A stretch of 64,000 nucleotides of DNA, taken from Candidatus Binataceae bacterium (lineage in GTDB: Bacteria; Desulfobacterota; Binatia; Binatales; Binataceae). The first letter of the stretch is position 1. Every line of letters begins with the position of its first letter. The notes under the pieces were generated by a model, which ran no database searches, was not told the DNA's origin, and saw nothing but the letters and a program-made list of their open reading frames with translations. Made by a program: the position numbers and the translations under genes. The stretch covers positions 113,347-177,346 of the forward strand of contig DATKOZ010000047.1 of the NCBI GenBank assembly GCA_035524375.1, written 5' to 3'. Below are positions 10,683 to 42,145 of this stretch, in pieces.

Positions 10683-11336
10683 CTAAACGCCGCGTTTATC
10701 GGCTCCCCAAATTTGCTTATGCAGTTGCAACTGCATCCGCGCGGGGATTCGATCTTCCAGAATCCATCCCGCCAGCTCTGCCGGTTCAAGCCTGCCGAAG
10801 ACCGGGCTTAGCAGCACCGCACCGACGCGATCTGCGAGACGGCGTGAGGCGATCGCCTCGCGCGCCCATTCGTAATCGGTACGGTCGGCAACGACGAACT
10901 TGATTTCATCGCGCGGGGTCAGATATTCGAGATTGCTCCACAGGTTGCGGTCGCATTCTCCGCTGCCGGGACATTTCAGATCCATGATCTTAATTACCCG
11001 CGGATCGAGCCGGCTCACGTCAATTGAGCCGGAGGTCTCGATCATCACGGCTTTTCCCGAATCGAGCAGCGATTGCATAAGGGGATAAACGCCCTCCTGC
11101 AGCAGCGGCTCTCCGCCGGTGATTTCGATCAGATCGCATCGATACTTCGCGATAATCTCGGCGACCTCGGCGGTGCGCATTCTGCGCCCTTCATAAAAGG
11201 CATACTCGGTGTCGCACCATTTGCAGCGCAGATTGCATCCGGTCAGCCGCACGAAGACGCATGGCCGCCCGGCATGGGTCGATTCACCCTGCAAGCTATA
11301 AAATATTTCGTTTATGTGAAGACGCTCAGAATCCAT
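10683..11336 (-). CDS. queE: 7-carboxy-7-deazaguanine synthase QueE (radical SAM)
   Basis: LTGCNLRCKWCDTEY radical-SAM cluster motif, plus IEITGGEPLLQ and the length (217 aa) typical of QueE. Confidence 0.85.
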   Translation of the reverse strand: MDSERLHINEIFYSLQGESTHAGRPCVFVRLTGCNLRCKWCDTEYAFYEGRRMRTAEVAEIIAKYRCDLIEITGGEPLLQEGVYPLMQSLLDSGKAVMIETSGSIDVSRLDPRVIKIMDLKCPGSGECDRNLWSNLEYLTPRDEIKFVVADRTDYEWAREAIASRRLADRVGAVLLSPVFGRLEPAELAGWILEDRIPARMQLQLHKQIWGADKRGV

Positions 11337-11837: not shown

Positions 11838-12704
11838 ATGAAGGTCAAGAAAGCGGTCATTGTTGCGGCCGGGATGGGCACGCGGATGCTGCCGTCGTCG
11901 AAGGTCATCCCCAAGGAAATTCTGCCGGTGATCGATACGCCGGCAATTCAGGTCGTCGTGGAGGAAGCCGTCGCCTCCGGCATTCAGGAGATCATCATCG
12001 TGATCAGCCCCGGAAAGACGACCGTGGTCGATCACTTCATGCCGGTTGAGGCGCTGGAACGGCATCTCGAAGAGCGTGGAAAGCACGACATCCTGGAGTT
12101 GGTGCGCCGCAGCAATAAGCCGGCGATGATCACCGTCGCCGAGCAGCACAAGCCGCTGGGCCTCGGCCATGCGGTCCTGCAGGCGCGCGAGGCGGTCGGC
12201 GACGAACCGTTCGCGGTGATGCTCCCCGATGACATCTTTGATTGTCCGCGTCCGTGCCTTCGCCAATTAATCGATGCGGCGGAACAGATGGATGCCCCGG
12301 TTGTGGCATTGTGCAAGGTCGCGCGCAGCGAACTGTCAAAGTACGGCATCGTCGATGCGAAGCCGGCCGGTCCGCGGCTGCATGAACTGCGCTCGATGGT
12401 GGAAAAGCCAGCGCCGGAAAAAGCACCGAGCGATTTCGCGATCATGGGCCGCTACGTCCTGACTCCGGACATCTTCGCGCTGCTCGCCGAGGGCAAGCCG
12501 GGGACCGGCGAAGAGATTCAATTGACCGACGGCCTGATGGCGTTGGCGCAGCGGCGCAAGCTGTATGGATATGAATTCGAGGGCGTGCGCTATGACCTGG
12601 GCGATCGCGTTGGGTTCATCTCGGCGCAAATCGGTTTTGGGTTGAAACGGCCGGATTTGGCTGATAAGTTGCGGGCTTACCTGAAGTCGGTCCTCGCACA
12701 ATAA
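11838..12704 (+). CDS. galU: UTP-glucose-1-phosphate uridylyltransferase GalU
   Basis: KAVIVAAGMGTRMLPSSKVIPKEILPVIDTPAIQVVVEEA is the GalU N-terminal signature, with VEKP and a conserved C-terminus. The 135-aa N-extension in the track ORF (11433) is discarded. Confidence 0.9.
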   Translation: MKVKKAVIVAAGMGTRMLPSSKVIPKEILPVIDTPAIQVVVEEAVASGIQEIIIVISPGKTTVVDHFMPVEALERHLEERGKHDILELVRRSNKPAMITVAEQHKPLGLGHAVLQAREAVGDEPFAVMLPDDIFDCPRPCLRQLIDAAEQMDAPVVALCKVARSELSKYGIVDAKPAGPRLHELRSMVEKPAPEKAPSDFAIMGRYVLTPDIFALLAEGKPGTGEEIQLTDGLMALAQRRKLYGYEFEGVRYDLGDRVGFISAQIGFGLKRPDLADKLRAYLKSVLAQ

Positions 12705-12726
12705 GACCCGCATTGACGCCTTGGAT

Positions 12727-12802
12727 GGGGCAGTAGCTCAGTTGGGAGAGCACCACGTTCGCAACGTGGGGGTCGAGGGTTCAAATCCCTTCTGCTCCAC
12801 CA
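12727..12802 (+). tRNA. tRNA-Ala (anticodon CGC)
   Basis: Folded by hand: acceptor GGGGCAG/CTGCTCC with the G3:U70 Ala identity pair, D-stem GCTC/GAGC, anticodon stem CCACG/CGTGG, loop TTCGCAA (anticodon CGC), T-arm GAGGG-TTCAAAT-CCCTT, and 3' ACCA. Confidence 0.9.
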
Positions 12803-12837
12803 AACCCAAATCCAAGAGGGGCAAAGGGCTGCGCGAT

Positions 12838-14166
12838 TTGATCGGCGGCGCTACGGCGGTCAGCCTGGCGGGAGTGGTAGCCTCCGCGGCCACACCGCTG
12901 GTCAGCGTATCGCCGAATGCAGTAAATTTTGGCTCATCGACGGAGGGATCTCCGGCTCCGACTCAGAGCATTACGATTACGAATAATTCAGGTGGTACTA
13001 TGAATATATCCAAGATGACATTTGCGGGTGCGCTTGGTTTTGCGATCGCTTCTTCAACCTGCGGAACACCGATTGCCGACGCAGCGTCGTGCGTGGTCGG
13101 GCTCTCGTTCACGCCGCAGTCGATTTCCGCTTCCGGCACCACCATCAATGGCACGCTGACAATTGCCGACGATGTCGTTAGTAGCCCACAAAAGTTTGTT
13201 AATTTGATCGGGACAGGGACCGCGCCGGTATCGAACGCTATCGCCTCGTATGCCCCGACGCCGGTTACATTCGCGGCCGCGATGGGATACTCAGCACAAC
13301 AGAATCTCACCGTTACAAATACAAGCAGCAACCCATTGTATATGTCGAGCCTCACGCTGTCCGACCCGTCCGATTTCGGGATCGTGAACAACGGATGCCC
13401 GGTGACACCGAACAGCCTAGCGGCAAGTGGCAGTTGCACGATCGCGCTCGATTTCGCACCGCAGTCGAATGAGACGGTCGCGGGTAGCCTGATGATCGCC
13501 GACAATACCAGTTCCAGCCCGGAGACTGTCGCCCTGTCGGGCGCGACGCTTACCTGTCCGATCGGCCAACCCAAGGGTCCTACGCCTCCAATTGTGACTC
13601 CGAGGTTATTCTTCTCTGGTGGGGACACGCAACTTACTGTGACCTCGGTGGTGCCACCCGACCCCAATCTCATAGCGAGTAACGTGACACTTCTGCAGGT
13701 CGATTCGAACGGGAACAATCCGGTAGTGCTGGGGCAGATGTACGACGACGGGACGCATGGCGACGCAGTTGCGGGCGACGGCCAGTACACCGCACAGCCC
13801 ACCGTCAATATTTCTTCGGCTGGGAGGATATATCTCGCGGTGCGCACAAATTATTCGGGACCTCCGGGATGCCGGCAGTCGAATAACAACGAGCGCCCGA
13901 TTGACGTTACTCCGCCACAATCGCAATTCAATCGTGCCCAGTTCGACGCGGAAAACAATGCCCTAACAGCAGGGGAAAAATTCCTTCAAGATGACATCGC
14001 AGGCGGAAAAAGCACCGCGCAAGCGGCACAGGATTTGGTGAATTACATGAAGGCGAATTTTCCCGGAGTCGTTTCTGACGCGGCAGTTGCTGGGACCTTA
14101 AACGATCCCACCGGCGTCTCGGTAACATTCACCAGTGGACGGACGGGAGGCTTTCTTCTCGATTAG
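12838..14166 (+). CDS. Secreted protein with tandem Ig-like ASH/'choice-of-anchor D'-type repeats (start uncertain: TTG 12838)
   Basis: Two repeats of the pattern VNFGSS...TQSITITNNSGG...ISK..F.....F.I.SSTCG.......C.VGLSFTPQS...G.LTIADD..SSPQ.V.L.GTG. The track ORF start (12721) reads through the tRNA and is spurious. TTG at 12838 is in frame, follows AAGGG, and begins a hydrophobic leader. Confidence 0.5.
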   Translation: MIGGATAVSLAGVVASAATPLVSVSPNAVNFGSSTEGSPAPTQSITITNNSGGTMNISKMTFAGALGFAIASSTCGTPIADAASCVVGLSFTPQSISASGTTINGTLTIADDVVSSPQKFVNLIGTGTAPVSNAIASYAPTPVTFAAAMGYSAQQNLTVTNTSSNPLYMSSLTLSDPSDFGIVNNGCPVTPNSLAASGSCTIALDFAPQSNETVAGSLMIADNTSSSPETVALSGATLTCPIGQPKGPTPPIVTPRLFFSGGDTQLTVTSVVPPDPNLIASNVTLLQVDSNGNNPVVLGQMYDDGTHGDAVAGDGQYTAQPTVNISSAGRIYLAVRTNYSGPPGCRQSNNNERPIDVTPPQSQFNRAQFDAENNALTAGEKFLQDDIAGGKSTAQAAQDLVNYMKANFPGVVSDAAVAGTLNDPTGVSVTFTSGRTGGFLLD

Positions 14167-14248
14167 GCACCTGTGGAATATCGCTTCTGTGGTAGGCTCG
14201 CATTGTCTCAACGGGATTGTCAGCCGCGCAAATTCTGAGGAAAACGAT

Positions 14249-15475
14249 ATGAATGTTACAAAGGAGAAAATTGCCGCTTTTGTAAGCCTGATCGTAGTAG
14301 CTATCGTTCCATCATCTATATTCGCACAGGCGGTTACTACTTATACCACAAATTCCAAGAGTATCGTCTTAATGCCATACGTCGATGATTTCGGAATGTA
14401 CGATGCGGGCGGAAATCTGATTAATGACCTTCCAAAGGCGTGCGGCACCTCAGATCCCTTTCCAGTTGTCTACGCAAATGTAGAAGCCTTCAGAGGGATG
14501 GGCAACGATTACGGCGTGATAGGCATATCATCTCATGGATGGGTAAGGCCAGAGACCGGTCAGGTTGAAATTATGACCCGCGAACCAGTCCCACCGCTGG
14601 GCGCGCCTATGGACCAGAAAGATATTAATGATGTCCTCGATAAATACCTTGGTTCTCTTGAGCGTCCTCCAGAAGATAAGGACACTACCCCTTATTTCGC
14701 GATTACGCCGGCGTTTGTCTCTCATTACGCGTCGCCCTATGCGGTTAAGGTAGGTCCTAACAGTTACGGCTACGAACGCCTTAACTATGTGGCCGCATGT
14801 GAGTCCGATGCGAACCCGACGATGGCCGCAGCATTTGTCGGAGACGAAAGCATGGGCGCTTATTTCGGGTACACAGAGAAGGCTAAGGCTTGGCAGGAGG
14901 ATACAACCGCCTTTGACCTTTTTGGAGTCCTAACCAATTTCAAATTGACTGACGATCAGCGAACGACTTCGAAGGCATACGCTCAGGCTGGAACGGACGG
15001 CGGCTTTTCGTTGGATTCAGTTAGCGACCAGAACTTGGCGATCGGAGGCCCGATCGTGAACGGCGGGTTCGAGGACACGGACACCAACGGCAGCCACCTC
15101 GTCGGGTGGACACGGCACTTCGAGCCAAATGCGGGAGCGATGAAGGACGGCCACTTTTGTGGCGATGGTGATACGGTCTGTACGCCGGCAGCCGGCGACG
15201 AGGCCTCGAAGGCCACTCGAGATGAGGCAAAGACTGGAAAATATTCCGCAGAGCTAGGACGGTGGGAAAATTCAAAAGGGCCGCCCGGTACTGATATTTG
15301 CACCGACTCGGTCGATAAGCAGGAGTCGGCTGGAGATGACCAAATATATCAGGATGTTACATTAGGAAAACGCACAGCGAATGGTGGCCCCAAATCGTTC
15401 ACGCTTACTTTCGATTACATTCGTTCTCCACCCCAAAGTTTGACGCTTAGTCCATTGCTCGAGTTGGAATTGTAG
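14249..15475 (+). CDS. Secreted hypothetical protein (409 aa); possible clan-CD (caspase/gingipain-like) His...Cys arrangement
   Basis: ATG at 14249 follows GAGG. Signal peptide MNVTKEKIAAFVSLIVVAIVPSSIFAQA. Motifs VIGISSHGW and LNYVAACESD each follow a hydrophobic strand. GC content by eye is about 45-50%. Confidence 0.5.
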   Translation: MNVTKEKIAAFVSLIVVAIVPSSIFAQAVTTYTTNSKSIVLMPYVDDFGMYDAGGNLINDLPKACGTSDPFPVVYANVEAFRGMGNDYGVIGISSHGWVRPETGQVEIMTREPVPPLGAPMDQKDINDVLDKYLGSLERPPEDKDTTPYFAITPAFVSHYASPYAVKVGPNSYGYERLNYVAACESDANPTMAAAFVGDESMGAYFGYTEKAKAWQEDTTAFDLFGVLTNFKLTDDQRTTSKAYAQAGTDGGFSLDSVSDQNLAIGGPIVNGGFEDTDTNGSHLVGWTRHFEPNAGAMKDGHFCGDGDTVCTPAAGDEASKATRDEAKTGKYSAELGRWENSKGPPGTDICTDSVDKQESAGDDQIYQDVTLGKRTANGGPKSFTLTFDYIRSPPQSLTLSPLLELEL

Positions 15476-15633
15476 AACGAATCCATACGATTGCCCCTCC
15501 TTTAGGCAGCTGTATTCGTGCATGTGTAGTAGCGGCTTAGCTGGGTATTTTATCGGTCGCGGCTCACGTTTCCTTCCTTAGCACATCCGATCCACCACGT
15601 CATTGTTGCAGCTTTCCTAACACGTCCGCTGGT

Positions 15634-15954
15634 TCAAAATTCCCAGGGCAGGTCACGGCGGTTATCCTTGGCTTCGCGGATTTTGGCTTGGGCGTTTCGC
15701 AATTGGGCATCGAGCGGTTCGGTGTCCATCCGCGCAACAATCTGGCCCGCATCGACGGTGTCGCCTTCGTGGGCAAGGATCTCCGCGATTCGGCCCTGAT
15801 ATTTTGTCGCGATATCCACCTGCTTGGCTTCCAGCTGGCCGTTAGCGCCGGCGAAACCGGGAGGCAGCGCGGGCTTGTTCAGGATAAACCACGCAATCGC
15901 TCCACCGCCAACTACGACGATTATTAGCCCTAGGTAAACAAATTTCTTCGACAT
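15634..15954 (-). pseudogene. Truncated N-terminal fragment (106 aa) of an HlyD-family membrane-fusion protein
   Basis: MSKKFVYLGLIIVVVGGGAIAWFIL... (TM), then QLEAKQVDIATKYQGRIAEILAHEGDTVDAGQIVARMDTEPLDAQLRNAQAKIREAK (biotinyl/lipoyl-like hairpin and start of the coiled coil), then a stop. Full-length HlyD proteins are 350-450 aa. Confidence 0.5.
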
Positions 15955-16234
15955 TGGCTTACCCTCGGAGCTATCTTGCGCCTATATTTGGACACGGTGC
16001 AATCATGGCTGTCCCTATTCGAAATTCCAAAAAGCGCGGAAAGCCAAAGGCTCTCTCGTGTCTCTCAAGTCTCGGGGAAGGCTAGCCTTATCTAAAACAG
16101 CGTTCTAGTAGCGTTCCGGCATTCGAGCGCGCTGTCAACCAATCGGGCGTCAACCGCCGCTGATCAACTCGCGTTATAGAGAGCACCTCGCATCAGACTG
16201 TGTCCTCCACCAAAACCAAACCGCACGGCGCGAA

Positions 16235-16261
16235 GGGAAATCGGCACATGGCCGATTTCCC
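16235..16261. promoter_or_regulatory. Perfect palindrome GGGAAATCGGC-acatg-GCCGATTTCCC (half-site recurs at 16575-16586)
   Basis: Seen directly. GCCGGATTTCCC appears again 110 nt upstream of the OMF gene. Confidence 0.3.
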
Positions 16262-16332
16262 GCGCGGGGCGCGTTTCGGCTCTTAGTCAACCCCAATGCA
16301 ACCGAATCGGCCCGATGCCAGCCTGCAAGCGG

Positions 16333-16455
16333 GTTGTGGTCCGCAAAAACGCTTCGCATCCGGTTGAAACCAAATAATTCTTGGGGATCTTGTCAAAATC
16401 CCCAAGAACTATGGAACGTTTAAGCCCATGCAAATTATTTTTGCGGACCACAACC
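16333..16455. repeat. 18-bp perfect inverted repeat GGTTGTGGTCCGCAAAAA...TTTTTGCGGACCACAACC flanking an internal 11-bp-arm palindrome (16378-16408 TTCTTGGGGAT-N9-ATCCCCAAGAA)
   Basis: Seen directly. A nested hairpin architecture of about 120 nt (MITE-like or structured RNA/regulatory site) in the leader of the efflux operon. Confidence 0.35.
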
Positions 16456-16689
16456 GTTCAGCATCTTTTACCGGACACCCAGGATAGCCCTCGTGACGCT
16501 TGGCCGCCACAAGAATATTTTTCGGAGCACTGCGGGAACACGAATGAGCGTTGAGAAGTAAAATCGAGATGTGCCGGATTTCCCTGCGGTTTCGGAAATT
16601 TGATATGGAGAAGATGCTAAATTTCAAGAGCACCGATGCGATTCGGGACGAAACATGGGATGTTCTGCCGCCCCCTGCGGATAATTTGA

Positions 16690-18273
16690 ATGCATTTTCA
16701 CCGCATACTTGAAAGTGTCGTGCTGACGACGGCTTTGGTAACGAGTGGCTGCCTGATCGGACCCAACTTCAAGCGGTCCGCAGCGCCGGTTGCCGCCAAA
16801 TGGTCGGAAACCGGCAGCCAGGGAGTGGATTCCGAACGTCGCGAGTATCGGGATTGGTGGACGTCGTTTAACGATCCGGTGCTGACGCATTTAACTCAGA
16901 TCGCCTACCTGCAGAATCTGACTTTATTGGCTGCCGGTGTCAGGGTCCTTGAGGCGAGGGCACAGCTTGGAGTTGCAATTGGCGAGTTCTACCCGCAACA
17001 ACAAACCGTAGGTGCATCTCTCAGCTACAATCGGATCCCGGATTCGTTGCCGTACAATATTATCAACAACACTTACTGGGCCGATCAATTCGGGGCGCAA
17101 GCGGCTTGGGAACTCGATGTGTGGGGTAAAATCCGCCGTGGCATCGAGTCCGCGGATGAATCATTTTTAGCTTCGGTCGCCGATTATGACGACGTACTCG
17201 TCACTATGACTGGTGATGTGGCAAGTACGTACGTGCAAATTCGCACTCTTCAGGACCAGATTGCCATCGCCAATCAGAATGTTGACCGCCAAAAGATCGC
17301 ATGCCAAATCGCCGAGGCAAAATTTCATGGCGGCACCGCGAGCAAGCGCGATGTATATCAGGCCGAGAATGTTCTGGGTTCCACCGAAGCTGCAATTCCT
17401 GCCCTCAATATTCAGCTGGCAGAAGCGAAGAACTCGCTGTCAGTGTTGCTCGGGGTGCCTCCCGGAATGCTCGATAAGTTACTGGCGGGGTCCAAGGGCA
17501 TCCCGACTGCGCCGGAGCAAATTGCCGCCGGCATTCCGTCAGATTTGCTCGTCCGGCGTCCCGATATCCGTCGCGCGGAACTGCAGGCGGCTGCACAATG
17601 CGCCCAGATCGGCTTCACCAAGGCGGACTTGTTGCCGGCCTTCAACCTGATCGGGAGCGTGGGAACCCTTTCCGGCACTGTAGGTACGTCGACGCTTGCC
17701 ACCGCCTTTTCGGCCAGCGCTCTGGTTTACAACGTCGGCCCATCGCTGCAGTGGAACATTCTGAATTATGGTCAGATAACCAATAACGTGCGCGTTCAGG
17801 ATGCGAAGTTCCAAGAGTTGCAGATTCAGTATCAGAATACCGTGCTCAAGGCGCAGCAGGAGGTCGAAAATGGCCTGGTTGTCTTTGTCGAGTCGCGCAA
17901 TCAGGCCAAATTTTTGACGGAGAGCGTCACAGCCGCAGAGGGTGCGCTCAGCATAGCAATGCTTCAATATCAGCAGGGTATTCTGGACTTCACCACCGTT
18001 CTGACCGCTGAACAGAATCTGTATCAGGCGCAAAACAGCCTGGCCATTGCGCAGGGAAATGTGCCGCAGGGGCTGATCGCAACATACCGGGCGTTGGGGG
18101 GAGGATGGCAGATTCGTATGGGCCATGATTTTGTTCCGCAAGAAACGCGTGACGAGATGTCCGATCGAACCAATTGGGGAACATTGCTGACGCCGAGCCT
18201 GATGAAGCCCAAAGCGCCGGGACTCCCCGGTCCAAAGGATTCATCGCCGGCGCCGGGATTGCCGGAATGGTGA
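16690..18273 (+). CDS. RND efflux outer-membrane factor lipoprotein (NodT/TolC family)
   Basis: Lipobox LVTSGC. Two OEP repeats, with conserved Arg/Asp-rich helices (RRPDIRRAELQAAAQ...). Confidence 0.85.
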   Translation: MHFHRILESVVLTTALVTSGCLIGPNFKRSAAPVAAKWSETGSQGVDSERREYRDWWTSFNDPVLTHLTQIAYLQNLTLLAAGVRVLEARAQLGVAIGEFYPQQQTVGASLSYNRIPDSLPYNIINNTYWADQFGAQAAWELDVWGKIRRGIESADESFLASVADYDDVLVTMTGDVASTYVQIRTLQDQIAIANQNVDRQKIACQIAEAKFHGGTASKRDVYQAENVLGSTEAAIPALNIQLAEAKNSLSVLLGVPPGMLDKLLAGSKGIPTAPEQIAAGIPSDLLVRRPDIRRAELQAAAQCAQIGFTKADLLPAFNLIGSVGTLSGTVGTSTLATAFSASALVYNVGPSLQWNILNYGQITNNVRVQDAKFQELQIQYQNTVLKAQQEVENGLVVFVESRNQAKFLTESVTAAEGALSIAMLQYQQGILDFTTVLTAEQNLYQAQNSLAIAQGNVPQGLIATYRALGGGWQIRMGHDFVPQETRDEMSDRTNWGTLLTPSLMKPKAPGLPGPKDSSPAPGLPEW

Positions 18274-19478
18274 GACGGGAAATGCACGCCGGATATCATT
18301 TTTCTTTCGCAAAAGCATTTAGCCGCATTCTTTTAATCCTGATCGCGGCCGAAGCGCTTGGAACAATCACCGGATGCCACGGCGGTGATGCCACGACCGA
18401 GATTCCTCCTCCGATCGTGACTGTGGCCCACCCCGTCACCCGCTCAGTCAACGACTATTTGGAATTTACCGGCAATCTCGCTTCGATCAATTCCGTTACG
18501 CTGGTCGCCCGCGTTGAAGGTTTCCTCGAGCAGATTCATTTTCAGGATGGAGCGCGGGTAAAAAAAGGCGACCTGCTATTCACGATTCAGCAAGATCAGT
18601 ACATAGCGCAGCTACAACAGGCGAAGGCCCAGGTTGAGGCTCAGAAGGCCGCACTTTGGCACGCGAAGACGGAGTTCGAGCGCTACACGAGACTGCTGAA
18701 GAAGGATGCGGCATCGCAGGTCGACGTTGACCACTGGCACTTTGAGCGGGACAGCTCCGCAGCCGCGCTAATTTCAGCGCAGGCACAGGTCGAAATTGCC
18801 AAACTCAACCTCGACTATACGGAGGTAAGGGCGCCCTTCGACGGCAGGATGGGGCGCCATCTGGTTGACCCGGGCAATTTGGTCGGAGCAATGGGGCAAC
18901 AGACGAAACTGGCCGAAATTGAACAACTCGACCCAATATACGCGTACGTTACGATCAATGAGCGCGAACTCCTGCGCATCATGAAACGAAGGAAGGACCA
19001 GGCGCGAGAAAAAGCTATCGAAGGGACAATTCCGGTGTTTTACGGCCTTGCGAGCGAAGATGGATTTCCACATGAGGGTCGTCTCGACTTCGCATCGCTG
19101 AACGTTACACCGACCACCGGAACTCTGCAGTTGCGCGCCATCTTTCCCAATCACGATCTGATCGTGATGCCGGGTCTTTTCGTGCGCGTGCGCATCCCCG
19201 TCCCGGAAGCTCGCGACGCCTTGCTCGTGCCAGGCGACGCAATCAGCTTCGATCAACAGGGCGAATACGTATTGGTCGCGAATGACAAAAATATCGTGGA
19301 GCGGCGCAGCGTCAAGACCGGGTTTCAAGTCGGAGATATGATGGTCGTCGACCAAGGGCTTAAGCCAGGCGACCGCGTGATCGTGGAAGGTCTGTTGCAG
19401 GCAATCATTGGCCGCCAAGTCAACCCACAGGCAAAAGACTCCGTTTCCCCCGACAAGACGCAAACCGCGGGCGGGTGA
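18267..19478 (+). CDS. RND efflux periplasmic adaptor (membrane-fusion protein, HlyD/AcrA family)
   Basis: ATG overlaps the OMF stop (ATGGTGA). Lipobox ITGC. Biotinyl-lipoyl hairpin (VEGFLEQIHFQDGARVKKGDLLFTIQ), coiled coil, beta-barrel and MP domains. Confidence 0.85.
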   Translation: MVRREMHAGYHFSFAKAFSRILLILIAAEALGTITGCHGGDATTEIPPPIVTVAHPVTRSVNDYLEFTGNLASINSVTLVARVEGFLEQIHFQDGARVKKGDLLFTIQQDQYIAQLQQAKAQVEAQKAALWHAKTEFERYTRLLKKDAASQVDVDHWHFERDSSAAALISAQAQVEIAKLNLDYTEVRAPFDGRMGRHLVDPGNLVGAMGQQTKLAEIEQLDPIYAYVTINERELLRIMKRRKDQAREKAIEGTIPVFYGLASEDGFPHEGRLDFASLNVTPTTGTLQLRAIFPNHDLIVMPGLFVRVRIPVPEARDALLVPGDAISFDQQGEYVLVANDKNIVERRSVKTGFQVGDMMVVDQGLKPGDRVIVEGLLQAIIGRQVNPQAKDSVSPDKTQTAGG

Positions 19479-19505
19479 AGCTGCTGGACCGGGAGAACGA
19501 CTAAC

Positions 19506-22500
19506 GTGTCTCGATTTTTCATCGAACGCCCGATCCTGTCGAATGTAATCGCGATAATCATCGTATTGCTCGGGCTGGTTTGCCTGCTGAACCTGCCTGT
19601 GGCGCAGTATCCTGAAATCGTCCCGCCAACGATACAGGTCCGGACAAACTATCCGGGCGCAAGTGCGGAGATCGTTGCTACGACCGTTGGCATACCGATC
19701 GAACAGGGAGTCAACGGTGTCGAGAACTCCCTCTATATGCAATCGACCAGCGGTAGCGACGGCACCTACACGCTCACCGTGACGTTTAGTGTTGGGACGG
19801 ACCTCGATGCCGCGATTGCACTGGTACAAAACGCCGTCAACGGCGCATTGTCCCAGTTGCCGGACGCGGTCCAAACTCAGGGCGTAACGGTCCAGAAGGT
19901 CAGCACCAATATCCTGCTCATTGGCAGCCTATATTCTGACCACAACCAATTCGACGAAACCTTCCTCAGCAACTATGCGATCATCAATCTGCAGAATCCG
20001 ATCGCCCGCTTGCCGGGAGTCGGACAAGTGCAGGTACTCGGCGCCGGACCGTACAGCATGCGCATTTGGCTCGACCCGATAAAGCTGAAAGCGTTCGGGC
20101 TGACGGTGCTCGACGTTCAACAGGCAATTCAGAATCAGAATGTTCAGGTGGCCGCGGGCCAGCTTGGAGGACCGCCAGTCGCGTCCGATCAGGTATTTCA
20201 GTTGACAGTGAATACGCTTGGACGCCTGACTGACGTATCGCAGTTCGAAAATATTATCCTGAAATCTCAGCCCCCCACCGATCGCACCAGCCAGGACACT
20301 CAGTCGGAAACCTACGCTCAAGCCGCCGCAATTGTCCGGATCAAAGATGTCGCCCGGGTTCAACTCAGCCAGGAGACATTTTCAAATTTTTCCGGCTTAA
20401 GCGGCCGGAAGGCCGCGCAACTCAATGTGTATACGCTGCCGGGTGCAAATGCCTTGAAGGTGTCGCAGGAGGTCTCGGAGCTGATGGCCAAGATGAGCCA
20501 AAAGTTCCCCGTCGGACTCAAATACGCCTCCCTTCTCGACACCTCCTTGTTTATTCGAGATTCGATCCACGGCGTGTATTCCGCGCTGATCGAGGCCGGA
20601 ATTCTGGTGTTGATAGTAATAATGTTGTTCCTGCAGAATTTTCGAGCAACGCTGGTTCCGGCGACTACCGTTCCCGTTACAATCATCGGCGCTTTCGCCG
20701 CGATGGCCCTGCTTGGCTTTACGGTCAATCTGATGACGCTCTTTGCCTTGATTCTGGCGATAGGGATCGTCGTGGATGACGCAATCGTCATTGTCGAAAA
20801 CGCCTCGCGCTACATCGAGAACGGCCTCTCTCCAAAGGATGCCGCCATCAAGGCGATGGAGGAGCTGACCGGGCCGATCCTCGGTATCACATTGGTGCTG
20901 ATATCGGTGTTTCTTCCGGCGTCGTTCCTTCCCGGCATTACCGGTCAGATGTTTCGGCAGTTCGCGCTCGTGATTGCGTCAACCGCGCTGATTAGTGCCC
21001 TAAATGCGCTCACTCTCAAGCCGACGCAATGCGCACTTTACTTGAAACCGCGTCCGAAGGACCAGCCAGTCAACCGGTTTTACCAAGAGTTCAACCGAAT
21101 TTACGGCATTATTGAGGATCGCTACGTCAGCTTGGTTGATTGGATGGCGCATCGACCCGGGCGGATGGTCGGGGTCTTCTTTTCAATCGTTGCTGTAGCT
21201 GGGCTCATGTTTGCATTACACCCGACCTCATTTCTTCCGCTGGAGGATCAAGGTTATTGCATTGTGTCCGCCAGGCTGCCTCCCGGCGCCGCGCAGCCGC
21301 GCGTGCAGGAAGTAGCAAGCGCCATCGACTCGGTACTTAAGGAAACTCCCGGAATCAAAGGTTGGGTGACCAGTGGCGGCGTTTCGGCGCTCGATTCGGC
21401 AAATTTATCCAACGCTGTGACTGTCTATGCCATGTACGAGGATTGGGGCAACCGCCAGGCCGGTCTTGATCAGGACCATATCGTTGCCGACCTTCGCCGG
21501 CGGTTGCAGTCAATCCGAAAGGCTGAATTCGACGTGCTTATTCCGCCGCCGATTCCGGGACTTGGCCAGGCTGGCGGATTCCAGATGATGATTGAGGATC
21601 GGACCGGAGTCGGCCTGGGCGAACTGCAGAAGGGAGTTGAGGAACTGATCCGAAAGGTCCGCGGAAACCCCGGCTTGCGTGGCGTTGCAACCACCTTTAG
21701 TGCAAATAGCCCTCAGCTTGAGCTGGACATCAATCGAACAATGGTCGAATCGCTCGGGGTAACGATTAACGATGTATTTCAGACCGTGCAGACCTATCTT
21801 GGATCTAGCTACATCAACCTTTTCAATAAATTCAATCAGAGTTTTCAGGTGCGCGTGCAGGCCGATGCCGATTATCGCAAGCAACTGGCAGACATCGGAA
21901 ATCTCTATGTCGCGAATCGGACCGGTCAGATGGTACCGCTGGGCGCCGTCCTGAGCATTCATCGAGTGCTCGGCTCGGAGCTTTTGACTCGATACAACAT
22001 GTATCCGGCCGCGATTGTAGTCGGTAATCCCGCTCCGGGTTACAGTTCGGGGCAAGCGCTCGAAACAATGGAGCGCGCCGCCAATACCGATTTACCGCTG
22101 GGAATGGGTTTCGATTGGACGGGACTGTCCTACCAGCAAAAGCTGATCGGAAATCAATCCTATTTCATATTCGCGCTTTCGATAACTTTGGTTTTCCTGG
22201 TCCTTGCAGCGCAATACGAGAGCTGGACGGCGCCTGCCGCGGTGGTGCTGACGGTGCCGATGGCGCTGGTCGGTGTCATTATCGCGCTCATCCTTCGCGG
22301 ATTTGCCACCGACCTTTATACGCAAATCGGACTGGTATTAATGATTGCGATGGCTGCAAAGAACGCGATCCTGGTGGTTGAATTTGCACGCGAGTTGCAA
22401 GCGGAAGGCATGACCGCGACTGAAGCGGCGGTCGAGGCGACGCGCCGGAGATTTCGCCCGATCGTGATGACGTCGATCGCATTCATTTTGGGCGTGGTTC

Positions 22501-22712
22501 CGCTGTTGACCGCAACCGGCGCAGGAGCGGCCAGTCAGCAGGCGCTGGGCACGGTAGTTTTCGGCGGCATGCTCGCCACGACGCTTATCGCCATTCCGTT
22601 TGTCCCCGTGTTCTATATCGTCATGGAAGGTTTCTCCGAGCGGCGAATGCGGCGAACTGGACGAACCCCGGCGCACGGCGAAGCCGTAGCAGTGAAAACG
22701 GACGGGGGATGA
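19506..22712 (+). CDS. RND efflux permease (HAE1/AcrB-MdtB type), copy 1
   Basis: 1068 aa and 12 TM. N-terminus MSRFFIERPILSNVIAIIIVLLG, plus conserved TM4 region (ALILAIGIVVDDAIVIVEN) and TM10 region. Confidence 0.95.
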   Translation: MSRFFIERPILSNVIAIIIVLLGLVCLLNLPVAQYPEIVPPTIQVRTNYPGASAEIVATTVGIPIEQGVNGVENSLYMQSTSGSDGTYTLTVTFSVGTDLDAAIALVQNAVNGALSQLPDAVQTQGVTVQKVSTNILLIGSLYSDHNQFDETFLSNYAIINLQNPIARLPGVGQVQVLGAGPYSMRIWLDPIKLKAFGLTVLDVQQAIQNQNVQVAAGQLGGPPVASDQVFQLTVNTLGRLTDVSQFENIILKSQPPTDRTSQDTQSETYAQAAAIVRIKDVARVQLSQETFSNFSGLSGRKAAQLNVYTLPGANALKVSQEVSELMAKMSQKFPVGLKYASLLDTSLFIRDSIHGVYSALIEAGILVLIVIMLFLQNFRATLVPATTVPVTIIGAFAAMALLGFTVNLMTLFALILAIGIVVDDAIVIVENASRYIENGLSPKDAAIKAMEELTGPILGITLVLISVFLPASFLPGITGQMFRQFALVIASTALISALNALTLKPTQCALYLKPRPKDQPVNRFYQEFNRIYGIIEDRYVSLVDWMAHRPGRMVGVFFSIVAVAGLMFALHPTSFLPLEDQGYCIVSARLPPGAAQPRVQEVASAIDSVLKETPGIKGWVTSGGVSALDSANLSNAVTVYAMYEDWGNRQAGLDQDHIVADLRRRLQSIRKAEFDVLIPPPIPGLGQAGGFQMMIEDRTGVGLGELQKGVEELIRKVRGNPGLRGVATTFSANSPQLELDINRTMVESLGVTINDVFQTVQTYLGSSYINLFNKFNQSFQVRVQADADYRKQLADIGNLYVANRTGQMVPLGAVLSIHRVLGSELLTRYNMYPAAIVVGNPAPGYSSGQALETMERAANTDLPLGMGFDWTGLSYQQKLIGNQSYFIFALSITLVFLVLAAQYESWTAPAAVVLTVPMALVGVIIALILRGFATDLYTQIGLVLMIAMAAKNAILVVEFARELQAEGMTATEAAVEATRRRFRPIVMTSIAFILGVVPLLTATGAGAASQQALGTVVFGGMLATTLIAIPFVPVFYIVMEGFSERRMRRTGRTPAHGEAVAVKTDGG

Positions 22713-22728
22713 TCGGACCGGTTCCCAC

Positions 22729-25700
22729 ATGTCGAAATTCTTCATTGAGCATCCGATCTTTGCCAACGTCATAGCGATAATTACAGTCCTACTTGGCGCG
22801 GTATGCCTCTATAGTCTTCCGGTCGCTCAATATCCTCAAATCGTCCCGCCGACAATTCAGGTAAGCACCAATTATCCGGGCGCGAGCGCCGAAGTGGTAG
22901 CTAATACTGTCGGAATACCAATCGAGCAGGCGGTCAACGGAGTCGAGAATTCCATTTATATGCTGTCCACCAGCGGCAGCGACGGCAGCTACACGCTAAC
23001 CATTACGTTTCAGATTGGCACCGACCTCACTACGTCGCTTGCTCTGGTACAGAACGCCGCCAACGCTGCGTTGCCGCAACTGCCAACCCAAGTGCGAAAA
23101 CAAGGAGTGAATGTCCGAAAGGTCAGTACCAATATTCTGCTAATTGAGAGCCTATACTCCGACGACAATCGCTTCGACGAAACCTTCCTCAGCAATTATG
23201 CGATCATCAATCTGCAGAATCCTATCGCCCGTCTGCCGGGGGTCGGACAGGTAAACGTTCTTGGAGCGGGCCCGTATGCGATGCGCGTGTGGCTCGCTCC
23301 CGACAAGCTCAAGGCTTACGGAATCACTGTCAACGAAGTTCAAAGGGCAATTGAATCCCAAAACGTCCAGGTGGCGGCGGGTCAAATTGGCGGTCCACCA
23401 ACCCCCTCGGATCAAATCTATCAATTCACCGTAAATACCGTGGGGCGGCTGTCGGATGTTAGCCAGTTCGAGAATATCATAATCAAGAGCGCGCCACCGG
23501 CGCCCGAAGGGAACCAATCGCACCCAAACGGCCCAGCCGCTGCGCTGGTACGCATCAAGGATGTTGGCAGTGTTCAACTGAGCCAGCAGGTTTACAGCAT
23601 TTTTTCCGGATTGAGCGGCAGGCCAACGTCGCATCTCGCGATTTATGCGCTGCCGGGCGCCAACGCGCTTCAGGTTGCACAGGAAACCCGCCAGCTGATG
23701 GAACAGATGGCGAAAACGTTCCCCCAAGGGCTCAAGTATGAGTCCTTGTACGACACAACCAAGTTTATCAACCAATCAATCAACGGCGTGTATTCGGCTC
23801 TGATCGAGGCTGGCGTATTAGTGCTAATCGTCATCGTTCTGTTTCTGCAAAATTTCCGCGCTACTTTGGTACCGGCAACCACCGTACCGGTTACGATTAT
23901 CGGCGCGTTTGCCGCGATGGCGATGCTGGGTTTTACCGTCAACCTGATGACATTGTTTGCGCTGATTCTGGCGATCGGAATCGTCGTCGACGATGCGATC
24001 GTGATTGTAGAGAGTGCGTCCCATTACATTGAGACAGGTCTGTCGCCCAAGGACGCCGCAATCAAGGCGATGGAGGAGCTGACCGGACCGGTTTTGGGCA
24101 TTACGCTGGTGCTCACGGCAGTTTTTTTGCCGGCGTCATTCCTGCCCGGCATTACCGGCCAAATGTTCCGGCAATTCGCACTGGTGATCGCCGCGACGGC
24201 GATAATCAGCGCACTTAATGCTTTGACACTCAAGCCAACGCAATGCGCACTTTACCTTAAGGCCATTCCAAAAGATCGACAGGTGAATTGGTTTTTTCGG
24301 GGATTTAATCGCGGATATAAGGCGATCGAGGATCGGTACATCAGCTTGATCGAGCGAATGGTGCATCATCCCAAGGCGATGGTTTGCGCGTTCGTGGTAA
24401 TCGTTGGTTCGGCAGGGTGGTTCTTTTCAGTTTATCCAACGACTTTGATGCCGCTAGAGGATCAGGATTATTGCATTGTGTCTGCGGAGCTTCCGCCGGG
24501 AGCGTCGCAGCCTCGGGCGCGCGCGGTAGCAGCCAATATCGACAAGGTGCTGAAGGGAATTCCGGGTGTGAAGGGGTGGGTCACTATCGGCGGGTATTCC
24601 GCGATCGACTCTGCGAAGTTGTCAAACGTCATCACAACCTTCGTGGTTTTCGACGATTGGGACAAGCGTCCGCCGGGGTTCACGCAGCTTGGTTTGATTA
24701 TGGAGCTCTATCAAAAGTTTCGTTATGTACCCGAAGCGAAATTTGCGGTGCTTCCTCCTTCGCCAATTCCCGGCCTGGGAGTTGCATTCGGATTCCAGAT
24801 GATGGTGGAAGACAGGGCGAATTCAGGGCTTCAGGAACTGGAAAAAGTGGAGCTCGGAATTTTGCGTGAAGCCTACAATCGGCCCGGCTTCTTGCGGCTC
24901 AGCTTCTCGACATTCAGCGCCAGCAGCCCGCAGGTCTTTCTTGATATCGATCGCACAATGGCAAAATCGCTTGGGGTGACAATCAACGATGTCTTCAAAG
25001 CGCTGCAAACATATTTGGGATCGAGCTACGTCAACCTGTTCAACAAATATAACCAGAGCTTTCAGGTTCGGCTTCAAGCCCAAGCCGACTATCGCCGCCA
25101 GACAGCCGACATCGCAACCCTGTACGTCACCAATCAATTCGGGCAGATGGTGCCGCTCGGTTCCATCCTTCATGAGCGCCGAACGCTCGGATCGGAACTG
25201 GTAACCAGGTACAACCTTTATCCCGCTGCGATGATTATCGGCATTCCGAATTTTAGGTACAGCACTGGACAAGCGATCCGCATCATGAAGCAGATTGGCG
25301 CGAACACCATGCCGCCGGGCATGGATTACGAATGGACTGGGCTTTCATATCAGGAACAGCTAATCGGTAATCAGGGAATTTTGATCTTCGCCCTGTCCAT
25401 TACATTGGTCTTCCTGGTGCTTGCCGCGCAATATGAGAGTTGGACAGATCCGGCGGCGGTCGTCCTGACGGTACCGATGGCATTGGTTGGCGTCATTCTG
25501 GCATTGTTCCTCCGGCGATTCCCGGTGAGTCTATACACTCAGATCGGGCTAGTATTGATGATCGCACTCGCTGGGAAAAATGCGATCCTAATCGTCGAAT
25601 TCGCGCGTGAACTCAAAGCGCAAGGCATGAGCGCGACCGAGGCAGCGTTGGAAGCGACGCGAAGGCGCTTCCGTCCGATCGTGATGACGTCAATTGCCTT

Positions 25701-25881
25701 TATTCTGAGCGTCGTACCGCTTGCAACCGCCGATGGTGCCGGCGCGGCGAGCCAACAAGCGATCGGCACGGTAGTACTGGGTGGAATGCTTGCGTCGTCC
25801 CTGCTGGCGATACCGTTCGTACCGGTATTTTATATTGTGATGCAGAATGTCAAGAACGCCTCAACCCGCGGACGTCGATGA
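22729..25881 (+). CDS. RND efflux permease (HAE1 type), copy 2, tandem paralog of copy 1
   Basis: 1050 aa, colinear with copy 1 and with long identical or near-identical stretches (e.g. FDETFLSNYAIINLQNPIARLPGVGQV, ALILAIGIVVDDAIVIV). Separated from copy 1 by 16 nt. Confidence 0.95.
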   Translation: MSKFFIEHPIFANVIAIITVLLGAVCLYSLPVAQYPQIVPPTIQVSTNYPGASAEVVANTVGIPIEQAVNGVENSIYMLSTSGSDGSYTLTITFQIGTDLTTSLALVQNAANAALPQLPTQVRKQGVNVRKVSTNILLIESLYSDDNRFDETFLSNYAIINLQNPIARLPGVGQVNVLGAGPYAMRVWLAPDKLKAYGITVNEVQRAIESQNVQVAAGQIGGPPTPSDQIYQFTVNTVGRLSDVSQFENIIIKSAPPAPEGNQSHPNGPAAALVRIKDVGSVQLSQQVYSIFSGLSGRPTSHLAIYALPGANALQVAQETRQLMEQMAKTFPQGLKYESLYDTTKFINQSINGVYSALIEAGVLVLIVIVLFLQNFRATLVPATTVPVTIIGAFAAMAMLGFTVNLMTLFALILAIGIVVDDAIVIVESASHYIETGLSPKDAAIKAMEELTGPVLGITLVLTAVFLPASFLPGITGQMFRQFALVIAATAIISALNALTLKPTQCALYLKAIPKDRQVNWFFRGFNRGYKAIEDRYISLIERMVHHPKAMVCAFVVIVGSAGWFFSVYPTTLMPLEDQDYCIVSAELPPGASQPRARAVAANIDKVLKGIPGVKGWVTIGGYSAIDSAKLSNVITTFVVFDDWDKRPPGFTQLGLIMELYQKFRYVPEAKFAVLPPSPIPGLGVAFGFQMMVEDRANSGLQELEKVELGILREAYNRPGFLRLSFSTFSASSPQVFLDIDRTMAKSLGVTINDVFKALQTYLGSSYVNLFNKYNQSFQVRLQAQADYRRQTADIATLYVTNQFGQMVPLGSILHERRTLGSELVTRYNLYPAAMIIGIPNFRYSTGQAIRIMKQIGANTMPPGMDYEWTGLSYQEQLIGNQGILIFALSITLVFLVLAAQYESWTDPAAVVLTVPMALVGVILALFLRRFPVSLYTQIGLVLMIALAGKNAILIVEFARELKAQGMSATEAALEATRRRFRPIVMTSIAFILSVVPLATADGAGAASQQAIGTVVLGGMLASSLLAIPFVPVFYIVMQNVKNASTRGRR

Positions 25882-26403: not shown

Positions 26404-27966
26404 ATGGAAAGGCAGAGAGATTCAGCCGATTTGTGTCGCGCAGGATTGCGCATCGCTAAGACCGCAGTCTTGATCGCAATCGCGTTTATGATGATGGCAG
26501 TTGCCAACCTGGGTGAACTACGAGCACAGTTGGCTGCGGCGCCGTGGCCGATGTTCCTTCACGATCTCGAGCATACGGGCCTTAGTCCTGACACTACCAG
26601 CACCAATACAGGCACTCTAGAATGGAAGTTCGCTACCGGCGATAAGGTGTTCTCCTCGCCTGCAATCGGCGCGGACGGCACTATCTATGTCGGCTCCAAT
26701 GATGGAAATCTCTACGCGATCGCCTCCGGCGGCTCGCAGAAGTGGAAGTTTACGACCGGCAATTTCGTGGAGTCTTCGCCGGCGATCGGGTCTGATGGCA
26801 CGATCTATGTAGGGTCGGAGGACTTCAATCTGTACGCGATCAATCCTGATGGCAGTCAGAAGTGGAAGTTTTTAACCGGCAGTTTGATCCTTAACTCCTC
26901 GCCGGCGATCGGCGCCGACGGAACCGTATACGTTGGCTCGCTTGATTCCAATGTGTACGCAGTCAATCCGGACGGCTCGCAGAAATGGAAATTTGTGACT
27001 CGCGGTCCAGTCACCTCATCGCCGGCAATCGGCGCGGACGGGACGATCTACGTTGGCTCCATCGACCAATATCTGTATGCGATCAATTCCGACGGCTCGC
27101 AGAAGTGGAAATTCCGTACCGGCGCCAGCGTGGATGCCGCGCCGGCAATCGACGCCGACGGAACCATCTACGTTGGATCGGACGATCGCCATCTTTACGC
27201 TCTCAATCCCGACGGCACGGAAAAGTGGGTGTTTGCGGTCGCCTTGGACGGACCATCGTCGCCGGCGATCGGCGGCGATGGCGCCATCTACATTGCCTCG
27301 GCTGATATGAATCTTTACGCGATCAATTCCGACGGGACGCAAAGATGGAAGTTCGCAACCAACGGGTTGGTTAACTCATCACCGGCAATAAGTGCCGACG
27401 GCACGATCTATATTGGCTCAAATGACGCCAATCTTTACGCAATCAACCACGATGGGACACTGAAGTGGATTTTTCCAACCAACGGTGACGTGCAAACTGA
27501 GTCCGCGATCGGGTCCGACGGTACCGTCTATTTCGGATCTTGGGATGGCGATGTTTATGCTGTTGGAGCCGGCGCAGGTCCTCCTCCAACTCGAACCGCG
27601 ACACCGACCGCCACTGTTACGCCTGTCCCGGTGACACTTAAAATCAGCCCGACTACGATTAAGTTTCCGGCCGCAATGGTCAATGCGCCCAGCAAACCAA
27701 AAACCGTCAAAGTCTCCAATCCCAAGGGCAGCAAGAAGAAACCAGGGGCCACAGTGCTGATCGAGATTTCTTCGAGTAATCCGGCGGTATTCGGCGAGAC
27801 CAACACCTGTGCGCCAAGTTTGCCTTCCGGAGATGATTGTACGATTTCAGTGACGTTCACTCCGAACTCGGCGATCTCACAGACCGGATCGCTGACAATT
27901 ACCGACAATGCGAACGGGAGTCCGCAGGAAGTAAGACTGAGCGGTACGGGAAAGGTTTCAAAATAG
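26404..27966 (+). CDS. Secreted PQQ-like 8-bladed beta-propeller protein with Pro/Thr linker and C-terminal Ig-like (choice-of-anchor-D-like) module
   Basis: Eight repeats of about 40 aa (SSPAIGADGTIYVGS.D.NLYAIN.DGSQKWKF.TG). Linker PPPTRTATPTATVTPVP. C-terminal VTLKISP..KFP...SKPK.VKVSNPKGSKKKPG...CTISVTFTP....G.LTITDNANGSPQ.V.LSGTGK. Confidence 0.75.
   Translation: MERQRDSADLCRAGLRIAKTAVLIAIAFMMMAVANLGELRAQLAAAPWPMFLHDLEHTGLSPDTTSTNTGTLEWKFATGDKVFSSPAIGADGTIYVGSNDGNLYAIASGGSQKWKFTTGNFVESSPAIGSDGTIYVGSEDFNLYAINPDGSQKWKFLTGSLILNSSPAIGADGTVYVGSLDSNVYAVNPDGSQKWKFVTRGPVTSSPAIGADGTIYVGSIDQYLYAINSDGSQKWKFRTGASVDAAPAIDADGTIYVGSDDRHLYALNPDGTEKWVFAVALDGPSSPAIGGDGAIYIASADMNLYAINSDGTQRWKFATNGLVNSSPAISADGTIYIGSNDANLYAINHDGTLKWIFPTNGDVQTESAIGSDGTVYFGSWDGDVYAVGAGAGPPPTRTATPTATVTPVPVTLKISPTTIKFPAAMVNAPSKPKTVKVSNPKGSKKKPGATVLIEISSSNPAVFGETNTCAPSLPSGDDCTISVTFTPNSAISQTGSLTITDNANGSPQEVRLSGTGKVSK
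26600..27550. repeat. Tandem approximately 120-nt DNA repeats encoding the propeller blades
   Basis: Recurring strings such as ggctcgcagaagtggaagtt, tcgccggcgatcgg and atctacgttggctc. These generate many spurious alternative-frame ORFs in the track. Confidence 0.6.
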
Positions 27967-42013: not shown

Positions 42014-42145
42014 GGCCTGTCCTGAGCGAAGCCGAAGGAAAGCGGCGTGCGGAGAAATAGAGCATAACCGGACTGCGTGTGCGAGCCGAAACGGTTGCCG
42101 CGCGTGATGGCATTGCCTAAGATCGACAGACTCGACTCCTCGAGT

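Follow-up and report, generated by a model that had tools for sequence, protein, structure and literature searches.

Introduction

Genomic islands linked to tRNA genes originate from integrase-mediated insertion at the 3' ends of these genes, and the tRNA itself usually stays intact when integration takes place at such a site. In this study, the 3 kb located 3' of a tRNA-Ala(CGC) gene downstream of galU were analysed. They lie within a 64-kb window (the whole stretch of DNA under study) from a member of the Binataceae, an uncultured soil bacterium. The flank carries two open reading frames, ORF1 and ORF2, and a 5' fragment of a gene for a membrane fusion protein (MFP) of the HlyD type on the opposite strand. 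From 12803 to approximately 16700, the hypervariable 3' flank of tRNA-Ala(CGC) probably consists of gene remnants that form a non-mobile mosaic without a recombinase. The evidence for this comes from the loss of synteny at the tRNA end, from the variability of this flank among relatives and from the truncation of the genes that follow the tRNA.

The window was obtained from a soil metagenome contig of 135 kb (ENA ERZ27256510). The Binatota are an uncultured soil phylum described from metagenome-assembled genomes (MAGs) only (PMC8262859). The genomic feature as such is routine, a degraded accessory segment at a tRNA hotspot, and shows how sites of this kind gather truncated genes. The main by-product of the analysis is a rare family of secreted proteins, predicted to be clan CD peptidase-like, which is not covered by Pfam or NCBIfam models and is paired with choice-of-anchor D proteins.

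Results and Discussion

Organization of the locus

The flank contains the following features (positions in the window):

12727 to 12802, plus strand: tRNA-Ala(CGC), intact (ARAGORN; Rfam RF00005, 68.6 bits)
12803 to 12837, plus strand: junction between the tRNA and ORF1, 35 nt up to the first possible start (sequence reading)
12838 to 14166, plus strand: ORF1, two choice-of-anchor D domains and a choice-of-anchor X domain (Pfam, NCBIfam)
14249 to 15475, plus strand: ORF2, secreted, predicted caspase-fold (clan CD) peptidase-like protein, cut at the 3' end (homolog alignment, model)
15419 to 15654, no strand: unique filler of ~235 nt between the convergent truncation points (similarity searches)
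15634 to 15954, minus strand: 5' fragment of an HlyD/MFP gene, YbhG-type, 106 aa (NCBIfam PRK03598, homolog alignment)

An earlier note on this DNA, made from the sequence alone, had described the tRNA-Ala(CGC) and the two plus-strand ORFs behind it, which were located as stated, and had dismissed a six-frame ORF running from 12721 through the tRNA as an artefact, with which we agree. The start codon of ORF2 is the ATG at 14249 rather than 14250, and the frame ends at 15475. Besides the tRNA, nothing was found in an Rfam scan of 12500-16900. Neither a terminator hairpin nor a promoter-like site was recognised in the junction (12803-12837), in a promoter and terminator scan whose performance on this stretch was no better than on shuffled sequence.

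The 3' flank of tRNA-Ala(CGC) in relatives

The tRNA-Ala is the last element of the window still syntenic with relatives. For comparison, 80 galU loci of Binataceae were collected in a GalU-based scan (one genome per species, GalU identity 63-88%). The order queE-dksA-galU-tRNA-Ala is conserved in nearly all of these loci, and the tRNA behind galU is 95-100% identical to that of the window in approximately 75 of them. The tblastx similarity of the relatives to the window halts at ~12800-12813, which confirms the tRNA 3' end as the synteny breakpoint proposed in the earlier note. The genes of ORF1, ORF2, the HlyD fragment and the outer membrane factor (OMF) and MFP located further downstream were found in none of the relatives (0/80) within 10 kb downstream of galU. 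The presence of these genes at the equivalent position in relatives, named in the earlier note as a finding that would speak against its reading, was accordingly not observed.

Where 2.5 kb or more of flank is available (60 relatives), the gene content behind the tRNA differs almost wholly from genome to genome. Two enzymes recur, a large serine recombinase (Resolvase and Recombinase domains) and a tyrosine integrase of ~445 aa with an arm-binding domain; one or the other is encoded within ~10 kb of galU at 27 of the 80 loci. In L040, L044 and L060, the integrase gene starts immediately behind the tRNA, and duplicated tRNAs are found in L032, L034, L035 and L067. At locus L081, imperfect direct repeats of ~100 nt, composed of 27 nt of the tRNA 3' end and ~75 nt of the flank, surround a 6.4-kb insert. 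The tRNA-Ala(CGC) after galU is thus a family-wide integration hotspot in Binataceae. With at least two recombinase types and clear duplications of attachment (att) sites, it should be useful for mining mobile elements of this family.

Most of the relatives' loci (L003-L082) share a conserved sequence within the ~40-100 nt immediately behind the tRNA-Ala, which consists of a hairpin, followed by GGAGAATCG and a GC-rich palindrome, GCGCGCATGCGCGC. In L081, two copies of this conserved post-tRNA sequence (e.g. at 10975-11044), each with the tRNA 3' end, flank the 6.4-kb insert, and it is therefore probably part of the attachment site. Two types of conserved post-tRNA flank (A and B) were searched for and are absent throughout the 64-kb window. 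With the family's own enzymes as tblastn queries, no integrase or serine recombinase was detected in the window, and the ORFs between 12.8 and 16.7 kb contain no recombinase domain, in line with the earlier note, which had listed no retained integrase.

Truncation of ORF2 and of the HlyD gene

ORF2 (408 aa) is, judged by alignment to its homologs, truncated at its 3' end at nt 15418, with an apparent loss of ~70-100 aa. This truncation had been overlooked in the earlier note. All homolog alignments stop at nt 15418 (codon 390), beyond which ORF2 has only 18 further, unrelated codons before its stop, and the colinearity of ORF2 with a related locus, L168, ends at the same point on the DNA as well as on the protein level. 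The closest homologs have 458-549 aa and reach 70-100 aa past residue 390 of ORF2. The missing part includes the most conserved block of the family (VRI.FGVH.DGWGD.TA.YVDNV.I.C).

The minus-strand ORF of 106 aa was confirmed as a true 5' fragment of an HlyD/MFP gene, as had been proposed before; it matches positions 4-96 of 332 of PRK03598 (44 bits versus a cutoff of 393). The homologous part comprises codons 1-101, encoding the transmembrane (TM) helix, the start of a lipoyl-like domain and the start of the coiled coil, and shares 65-82% identity with homologs of Binataceae. Behind DNRR (residue 101), the fragment departs from its homologs with six unrelated codons and a stop (DLPWEF-stop), while the homologs run on into the coiled coil (TAQAEVAVKQAEL...). 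The breakpoint is located at approximately nt 15651-15657. A full-length adaptor of this type has ~335 aa. The copy in L083, on a contig whose name suggests a long-read assembly, reads ~340 aa across a frameshift and is followed by genes for an ATP-binding cassette (ABC) ATPase/permease and an ABC-2 permease and by OEP genes; L084 is organized alike. Neither ABC partner genes nor the remainder of the HlyD gene were found in the 64-kb window.

All 53 database matches to the fragment are at most 182 aa long (range 74-182 aa). In the homolog searches with three queries, no match exceeded ~1.75 times the length of the query (106 aa to 182 aa, 453 to 790 and 408 to 535), which appears to be a property of the search. 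A truncated query therefore makes its family seem naturally short, since no match above ~1.75 times its length is returned. A naturally short HlyD-like family, considered in the earlier note as a finding that would speak against truncation, was rejected on the basis of the alignment past residue 101, the ragged or frameshifted ends of the matches and the ~340-aa gene in L083.

The missing parts of ORF2 and of the HlyD gene were searched for in every frame near the junction, and no remnant was detected. Compared by blastn and tblastx with the remaining window sequence and with 163 related loci, the filler (15400-15660) gave nothing meaningful. An inverted repeat (11/12 matching; 15419-15430 and 15471-15482) begins exactly at the ORF2 breakpoint. 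Since two convergent genes are both truncated at the 3' end and separated by ~235 nt of unique filler, one or several deletions or illegitimate joins are indicated rather than a clean insertion. On this architecture, the ORF2-HlyD junction would have been shaped after arrival, by deletion or illegitimate recombination. The ORFs of 408 and 106 aa should be annotated as truncated genes.

ORF2 family and predicted fold

Both ORFs had been taken for genes of secreted proteins in the earlier note. For ORF2 this is supported by a clear Sec signal, as judged by eye (MNVTKEKIAAFVSLIVVAIVPSSIFA|QA), and the gene is preceded by a good ribosome-binding site; a clear signal peptide is lacking in ORF1. ORF2 has no match in Pfam or NCBIfam, and none of 23 sequences of its family (0/23) matches any C11, C13, C14, C25 or CHAT model of Pfam. 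In an exhaustive HMMER search, only 23 related clusters were obtained among 1.84 billion representatives. Searches of ORF2 against plasmid and phage collections gave no match. Two full-length paralogs (P0058 and P0161) were found.

With an alignment of 23 sequences, AlphaFold2 predicted the N-terminal domain (residues ~30-265) with a predicted local distance difference test (pLDDT) score of 85-94 and the C-terminal part poorly, while a model based on eight sequences only was unusable (pLDDT 30). The N-terminal domain of the predicted model has an alpha/beta fold like that of caspases and gingipains. His96-Gly97 is conserved in 22/22 and Cys184 in 20/22 of the family sequences; His96 follows model strand 90-94 and Cys184 strand 177-182, which corresponds to the canonical order of clan CD (His, then Cys, behind central strands). 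On this confidently predicted fold, ORF2 is assigned as a secreted clan CD peptidase-like protein with His96 and Cys184 as a putative catalytic pair. The C-terminal domain of the family shows weak similarity to the InhA MAM domain. In ORF2, the signal peptide and the catalytic-type domain are whole, and the C-terminal MAM-like beta-sandwich is cut.

ORF1 and its 5' end

The frame of ORF1 is open from 12721 to 14166, including the artefactual part over the tRNA. The protein matches the Pfam models ASH, Cep192_D4 and HYDIN Ig (also PF15780 and PF22073, named for the domain type), the NCBIfam model choice_anch_D (NF012200; two stretches, 77.3 bits versus a curated cutoff of 45) and choice_anch_X. 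The choice-of-anchor X domain forms the C-terminal part of ORF1, behind the two choice-of-anchor D (ASH/Ig-like) domains. ORF1 has its best homologs exclusively in Binataceae (55-61% identity), and the C-terminus is colinear with the closest of them, which is encoded in L168.

The earliest candidate starts past the tRNA are a CTG at 12829 and a TTG at 12838, while the ATG at 13000 was used in the public gene call. A convincing start codon or promoter is lacking for the starts of ORF1. TTG 12838 is located only 35 nt past the tRNA; no promoter was detected in these 35 nt, and there is no room for one. The N-terminus read from this TTG has no charged residue ahead of the hydrophobic stretch. The residues encoded directly after the tRNA, KPKSKRGKGLRDLIGGATAVSLAGVVASAA, are signal-peptide-like and lack a start codon. 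Alternatively, the residues GGATAVSLAGV of ORF1 align inside a multi-domain homolog (P0079) at residue 234, at the end of an upstream Ig domain. On either reading of the N-terminus, the sequence suggests that the 5' end of ORF1 was lost at the tRNA junction.

The ORF1-ORF2 module at other loci

The closest copy of the gene pair is located in L168 (MAG GCA_050736615.1), where a full-length homolog of ORF2 (called with 535 aa) directly follows a homolog of ORF1 (61% identity). The pair is colinear with 13252-15408 of the window. Downstream in L168, an IS3-like remnant, a single-stranded DNA-binding protein (SSB), a sigma-54 activator, an HTH_17 protein and a Phage_integrase ORF of 430 aa (E = 3.8e-28) are encoded, the latter abutting the 3' end of a tRNA-Lys. 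An att repeat, i.e. a direct repeat of the tRNA-Lys, was not found in L168 between the module and the integrase. The IS3-like remnant (L168:2239-3006, minus strand) is an N-terminal part of a transposase (HTH_21/HTH_32) and directly adjoins the full-length ORF2 homolog at its 3' end, which shows that the L168 module sits in mobile-element-rich DNA.

Two paralogous pairs are present in the same assembly as the window (ERZ27256510; L170:2-3228 and L172:2-3312), each with a 4-nt overlap of the two genes. One of them adjoins fabD-plsX-yceD, and the other is located directly upstream of a complete-looking type II secretion system (T2SS) cluster (gspE, F, G, pseudopilins, K and M), which hints that the module products may be T2SS substrates. 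Members of the ORF2 family are always paired with a choice-of-anchor D protein. The window copy shares 61% (ORF1) and 43-47% (ORF2) identity with the L168 copy, and ~45% and 35-38%, respectively, with the paralogs of its own assembly, which fits lateral movement of one sub-branch of the module within Binataceae. Judging from the restriction of all close homologs to Binataceae and from the two paralogous pairs in ERZ27256510, both genes are at home in this lineage.

Taken together, the pairs may represent an undescribed, translationally coupled module that occurs in Binataceae and, with a few relatives, in Terriglobales. It would consist of an Ig-like choice-of-anchor D/X surface protein and a new secreted clan CD (gingipain/CHAT-like) family with a MAM-like domain, would be exported by the T2SS and, in one sub-branch, would be mobile between tRNA islands (tRNA-Ala and tRNA-Lys), with the window copy decaying. 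We put this forward tentatively, as a possibility to which we give somewhat less than even weight.

Base composition

The earlier note had contrasted two low-GC genes with a GC content of ~64% for galU and queE. This baseline was wrong; the values are 61.8% for galU, 57.0% for queE and 57.9% for the window. Of the two genes, only ORF2 is low (GC 51.6%, GC content at third codon positions (GC3) 0.54), ~2 standard deviations under the mean of 56 long ORFs of the window (0.66 ± 0.057). ORF1 (GC 57%, GC3 0.63), the HlyD fragment (GC3 0.64) and the OMF gene (GC3 0.63) are ordinary. The window's 1-kb GC minimum (0.506, 14001-15000) and a tetranucleotide peak (z = 2.4, 13501-16000) fall on ORF2, and tetranucleotide deviations of equal size are found elsewhere in the window. 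The deviation expected from the earlier note was hence seen for ORF2 only. ORF2-type genes are below their neighbours in GC and GC3 at two other loci, one by fabD-plsX and one in another MAG. The low GC content is therefore a trait of the gene family and no evidence of recent import.

The region beyond the HlyD fragment

Three further features follow the HlyD fragment:

15955 to 16689, no strand: non-coding stretch of 735 nt from the HlyD fragment to the divergent OMF gene (repeat, terminator and Rfam scans)
16205 to 16220, plus strand: candidate direct repeat, degenerate, of the tRNA 3' end and its flank (15/16 match to 12795-12810)
16690 to 25881, plus strand: efflux operon encoding an OMF, an MFP and two resistance-nodulation-division (RND) pumps (Pfam OEP, HlyD_D23 and twice ACR_tran)

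According to the earlier note, no att repeat had been retained. A marginal candidate exists, CTCCACCAAACCCAAA at 12795-12810 versus CTCCACCAAAACCAAA at 16205-16220, and is the only att-like repeat. For this 16-mer, 0.04 chance matches are expected, yet the BLAST E value with a 70-nt query of the tRNA end is 0.19. The candidate takes in only the last 8 nt of the tRNA, while the proven att repeat of L081 contains 27 nt of the tRNA and ~75 nt of flank. It would gain weight if the core of the tRNA-Ala integrase (c9 family) included CTCCACCA and downstream bases; if it is real, the HlyD fragment would fall inside the inserted segment.

The 735-nt stretch matches no Rfam family and has no convincing similarity to the 163 related loci (blastn, tblastx). 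It contains a perfect 11-bp hairpin (16235-16261) and a nested palindrome of 124 nt (16332-16455) with outer arms of 37 nt (78% complementary) and inner arms of 19 nt (89%). The palindrome core (16374-16412) scores as a minus-strand terminator, with no gene upstream of it. Both structures may be orphan regulatory or terminator remnants.

In the efflux operon (19506-25881 part), the OMF and MFP genes are followed by tandem RND pumps of 1068 and 1050 aa, an arrangement that resembles the two-pump layout of MdtABC. The OMF-MFP-RND operon had no tblastn match in the tRNA-Ala flanks of the relatives' galU loci. The right-hand limit of the variable region is therefore, as far as gene content tells, not at 15954. 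None of 80 metagenome loci with OMF homologs has an HlyD neighbour, at a sequence identity (60-70%) too distant for conclusions on the backbone context.

Up to ~37 kb, the GC content stays at ~0.53-0.57, apart from a rise to ~0.59-0.60 near 28-30 kb, and further ASH-domain surface proteins and unknown ORFs are encoded. Beyond this stretch, a gene of the housekeeping type was first recognised at 37403 (thiolase), so that the variable region may span ~24 kb. Two large, probably secreted proteins with C-terminal Ig domains of the ASH/choice-of-anchor D type are encoded at 26404-27966 and 28272-31703; they comprise a PQQ-like beta-propeller and an NHL-repeat protein (1143 aa). The beta-propeller gene (26.4 kb) was considered as a point of resumed synteny and rejected as a paralog, the homologs in the tRNA-Ala flanks of L014, L026 and L055 being encoded on the opposite strand with no shared neighbours. 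Two ORFs without a Pfam match (945 and 286 aa) are located at 33168-36862, where the highest tetranucleotide deviation of the window was measured (z = 2.87, 34001-36000). A second tRNA gene, tRNA-Leu(caa) at 42146-42231, adjoins an L,D-transpeptidase/LysM gene; a mechanical minus-strand ORF (41084-42232) overlaps it.

Origin of the flank

In the reading that we consider probable, the module most likely came to this site as cargo of an integrative element like the one at the tRNA-Lys of L168, where a copy of the same sub-branch is located beside a tyrosine integrase, an excisionase (Xis)-like helix-turn-helix protein and an SSB. Later deletions or illegitimate recombination would have taken out the integrase and the att sites, leaving ORF1 butted on the tRNA without start signals of its own. 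ORF2 would have been cut at codon 390, and ~235 nt of unrelated sequence would now connect it to codons 1-101 of the gene for an HlyD/YbhG adaptor of the ABC type whose transporter partners are gone, with a presumable loss of function of the truncated genes. The tRNA would have been kept intact throughout.

Several observations weigh against this sequence of events. No remnant of an integrase, excisionase or transposase was found in or near the stretch, and the sole att-like repeat is both short and only marginally significant. In composition, ORF1 and the HlyD fragment do not stand out, and the low GC content of ORF2 is shared by its family. The paralogous modules of the same genome are plainly chromosomal (at fabD-plsX and at the T2SS cluster), and the window copy could be an old duplicate and not island cargo. 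The orientation of the module to the tRNA is opposite to that in the L168 island. ORF1 could also be intact, in which case it would begin at TTG 12838 and encode a weak signal peptide. Finally, the nearest relative shares only 88% GalU identity, and the comparison includes neither an empty site of the same species nor an intact precursor.

The islet proposed in the earlier note, i.e. ORF1 and ORF2 as a discrete unit inserted or exchanged at the tRNA-Ala in one event that also clipped a resident backbone HlyD/MFP gene, with the fragment at 15634-15954 as its far edge, is unlikely. It would account for a synteny break exactly at the tRNA end, for an HlyD gene truncated on its tRNA-facing side and for the integration hotspot seen in relatives, and to this extent the earlier note is supported. 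However, the truncation of ORF2 at this very junction means that the islet did not come in whole or has not remained so, and the two breakpoints are ~235 nt apart, with unrelated filler in between; neither fits a clean insertion. Nor is there support for the HlyD fragment as part of the backbone: no relative carries an HlyD-ABC or OMF-RND operon in its tRNA-Ala flank, and the homologs of the OMF operon elsewhere lack an HlyD neighbour. The only att candidate (16205) is located beyond the fragment.

Slightly less likely still is a history without mobile elements, in which a native, paralogous secreted-protein operon of Binataceae remains functional in a fast-evolving region, ORF2 has a shortened C-terminus and the HlyD fragment is an unrelated local pseudogene. 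The restriction of the close homologs to Binataceae, the two further chromosomal pairs in the same assembly (one directly upstream of the T2SS cluster), the retained signal peptide and His96/Cys184 pair of ORF2, and the host-like composition of ORF1 together with the low GC of the ORF2 family are all compatible with this. It is less easily reconciled with a demonstrated integration hotspot at this site, with the closest copy of the module adjoining an integrase at another tRNA, or with the absence of the most conserved C-terminal block from ORF2. The missing promoter room for ORF1, the N-terminus from TTG 12838 without charged residues before the hydrophobic stretch and the two convergent truncations side by side argue in the same direction. 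That the junctions are assembly chimeras of unrelated metagenome contigs is very improbable. The window does derive from a short-read metagenome contig (k141 naming), and the repeated Ig domains in ORF1-type genes break assemblies, as seen from contigs that start inside them in L168, L170 and L172. Nevertheless, the same order (part of ORF1, ORF2, HlyD fragment, OMF, MFP, RND) was recovered in an independent Logan assembly of SRR8879131, and identical proteins of 408 and 106 aa are consecutive entries (HUO05677.1 and HUO05678.1) of an NCBI Candidatus Binataceae MAG; the longest contig carrying each has 284,298 nt.

Comparison with known systems

Compared to the adaptors of ABC-2 efflux systems (YbhG/HlyD in YbhGFSR-like operons), the fragment shares the N-terminal 101 residues only and does not have the full architecture of YbhG-type proteins (~330 aa; TM, lipoyl domain, coiled-coil hairpin and beta-barrel). 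ORF1 resembles choice-of-anchor D/ASH Ig-like surface proteins in its two above-cutoff domains and the choice-of-anchor X motif, but carries fewer repeats than its paralogs (>617 aa) and has no clear signal peptide or start codon. In contrast to clan CD peptidases (gingipains C25, CHAT, metacaspases/caspases C14 and legumain C13), ORF2 has no sequence-level match and shares ~10% identity with its structural matches. Unlike its full-length, predicted clan CD relatives within the family, the window copy lacks the end of the weakly MAM/InhA-like C-terminal domain.

As a whole, the stretch differs from tRNA-linked islands in having no integrase and no convincing att repeat, in a composition that is not clearly foreign, in its truncated cargo genes and in a right boundary that is not definable. 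It resembles them in that it abuts an intact tRNA, is absent at this locus from the relatives' flanks (present in 0/80), is located at an integration hotspot and carries accessory genes for secreted proteins as cargo.

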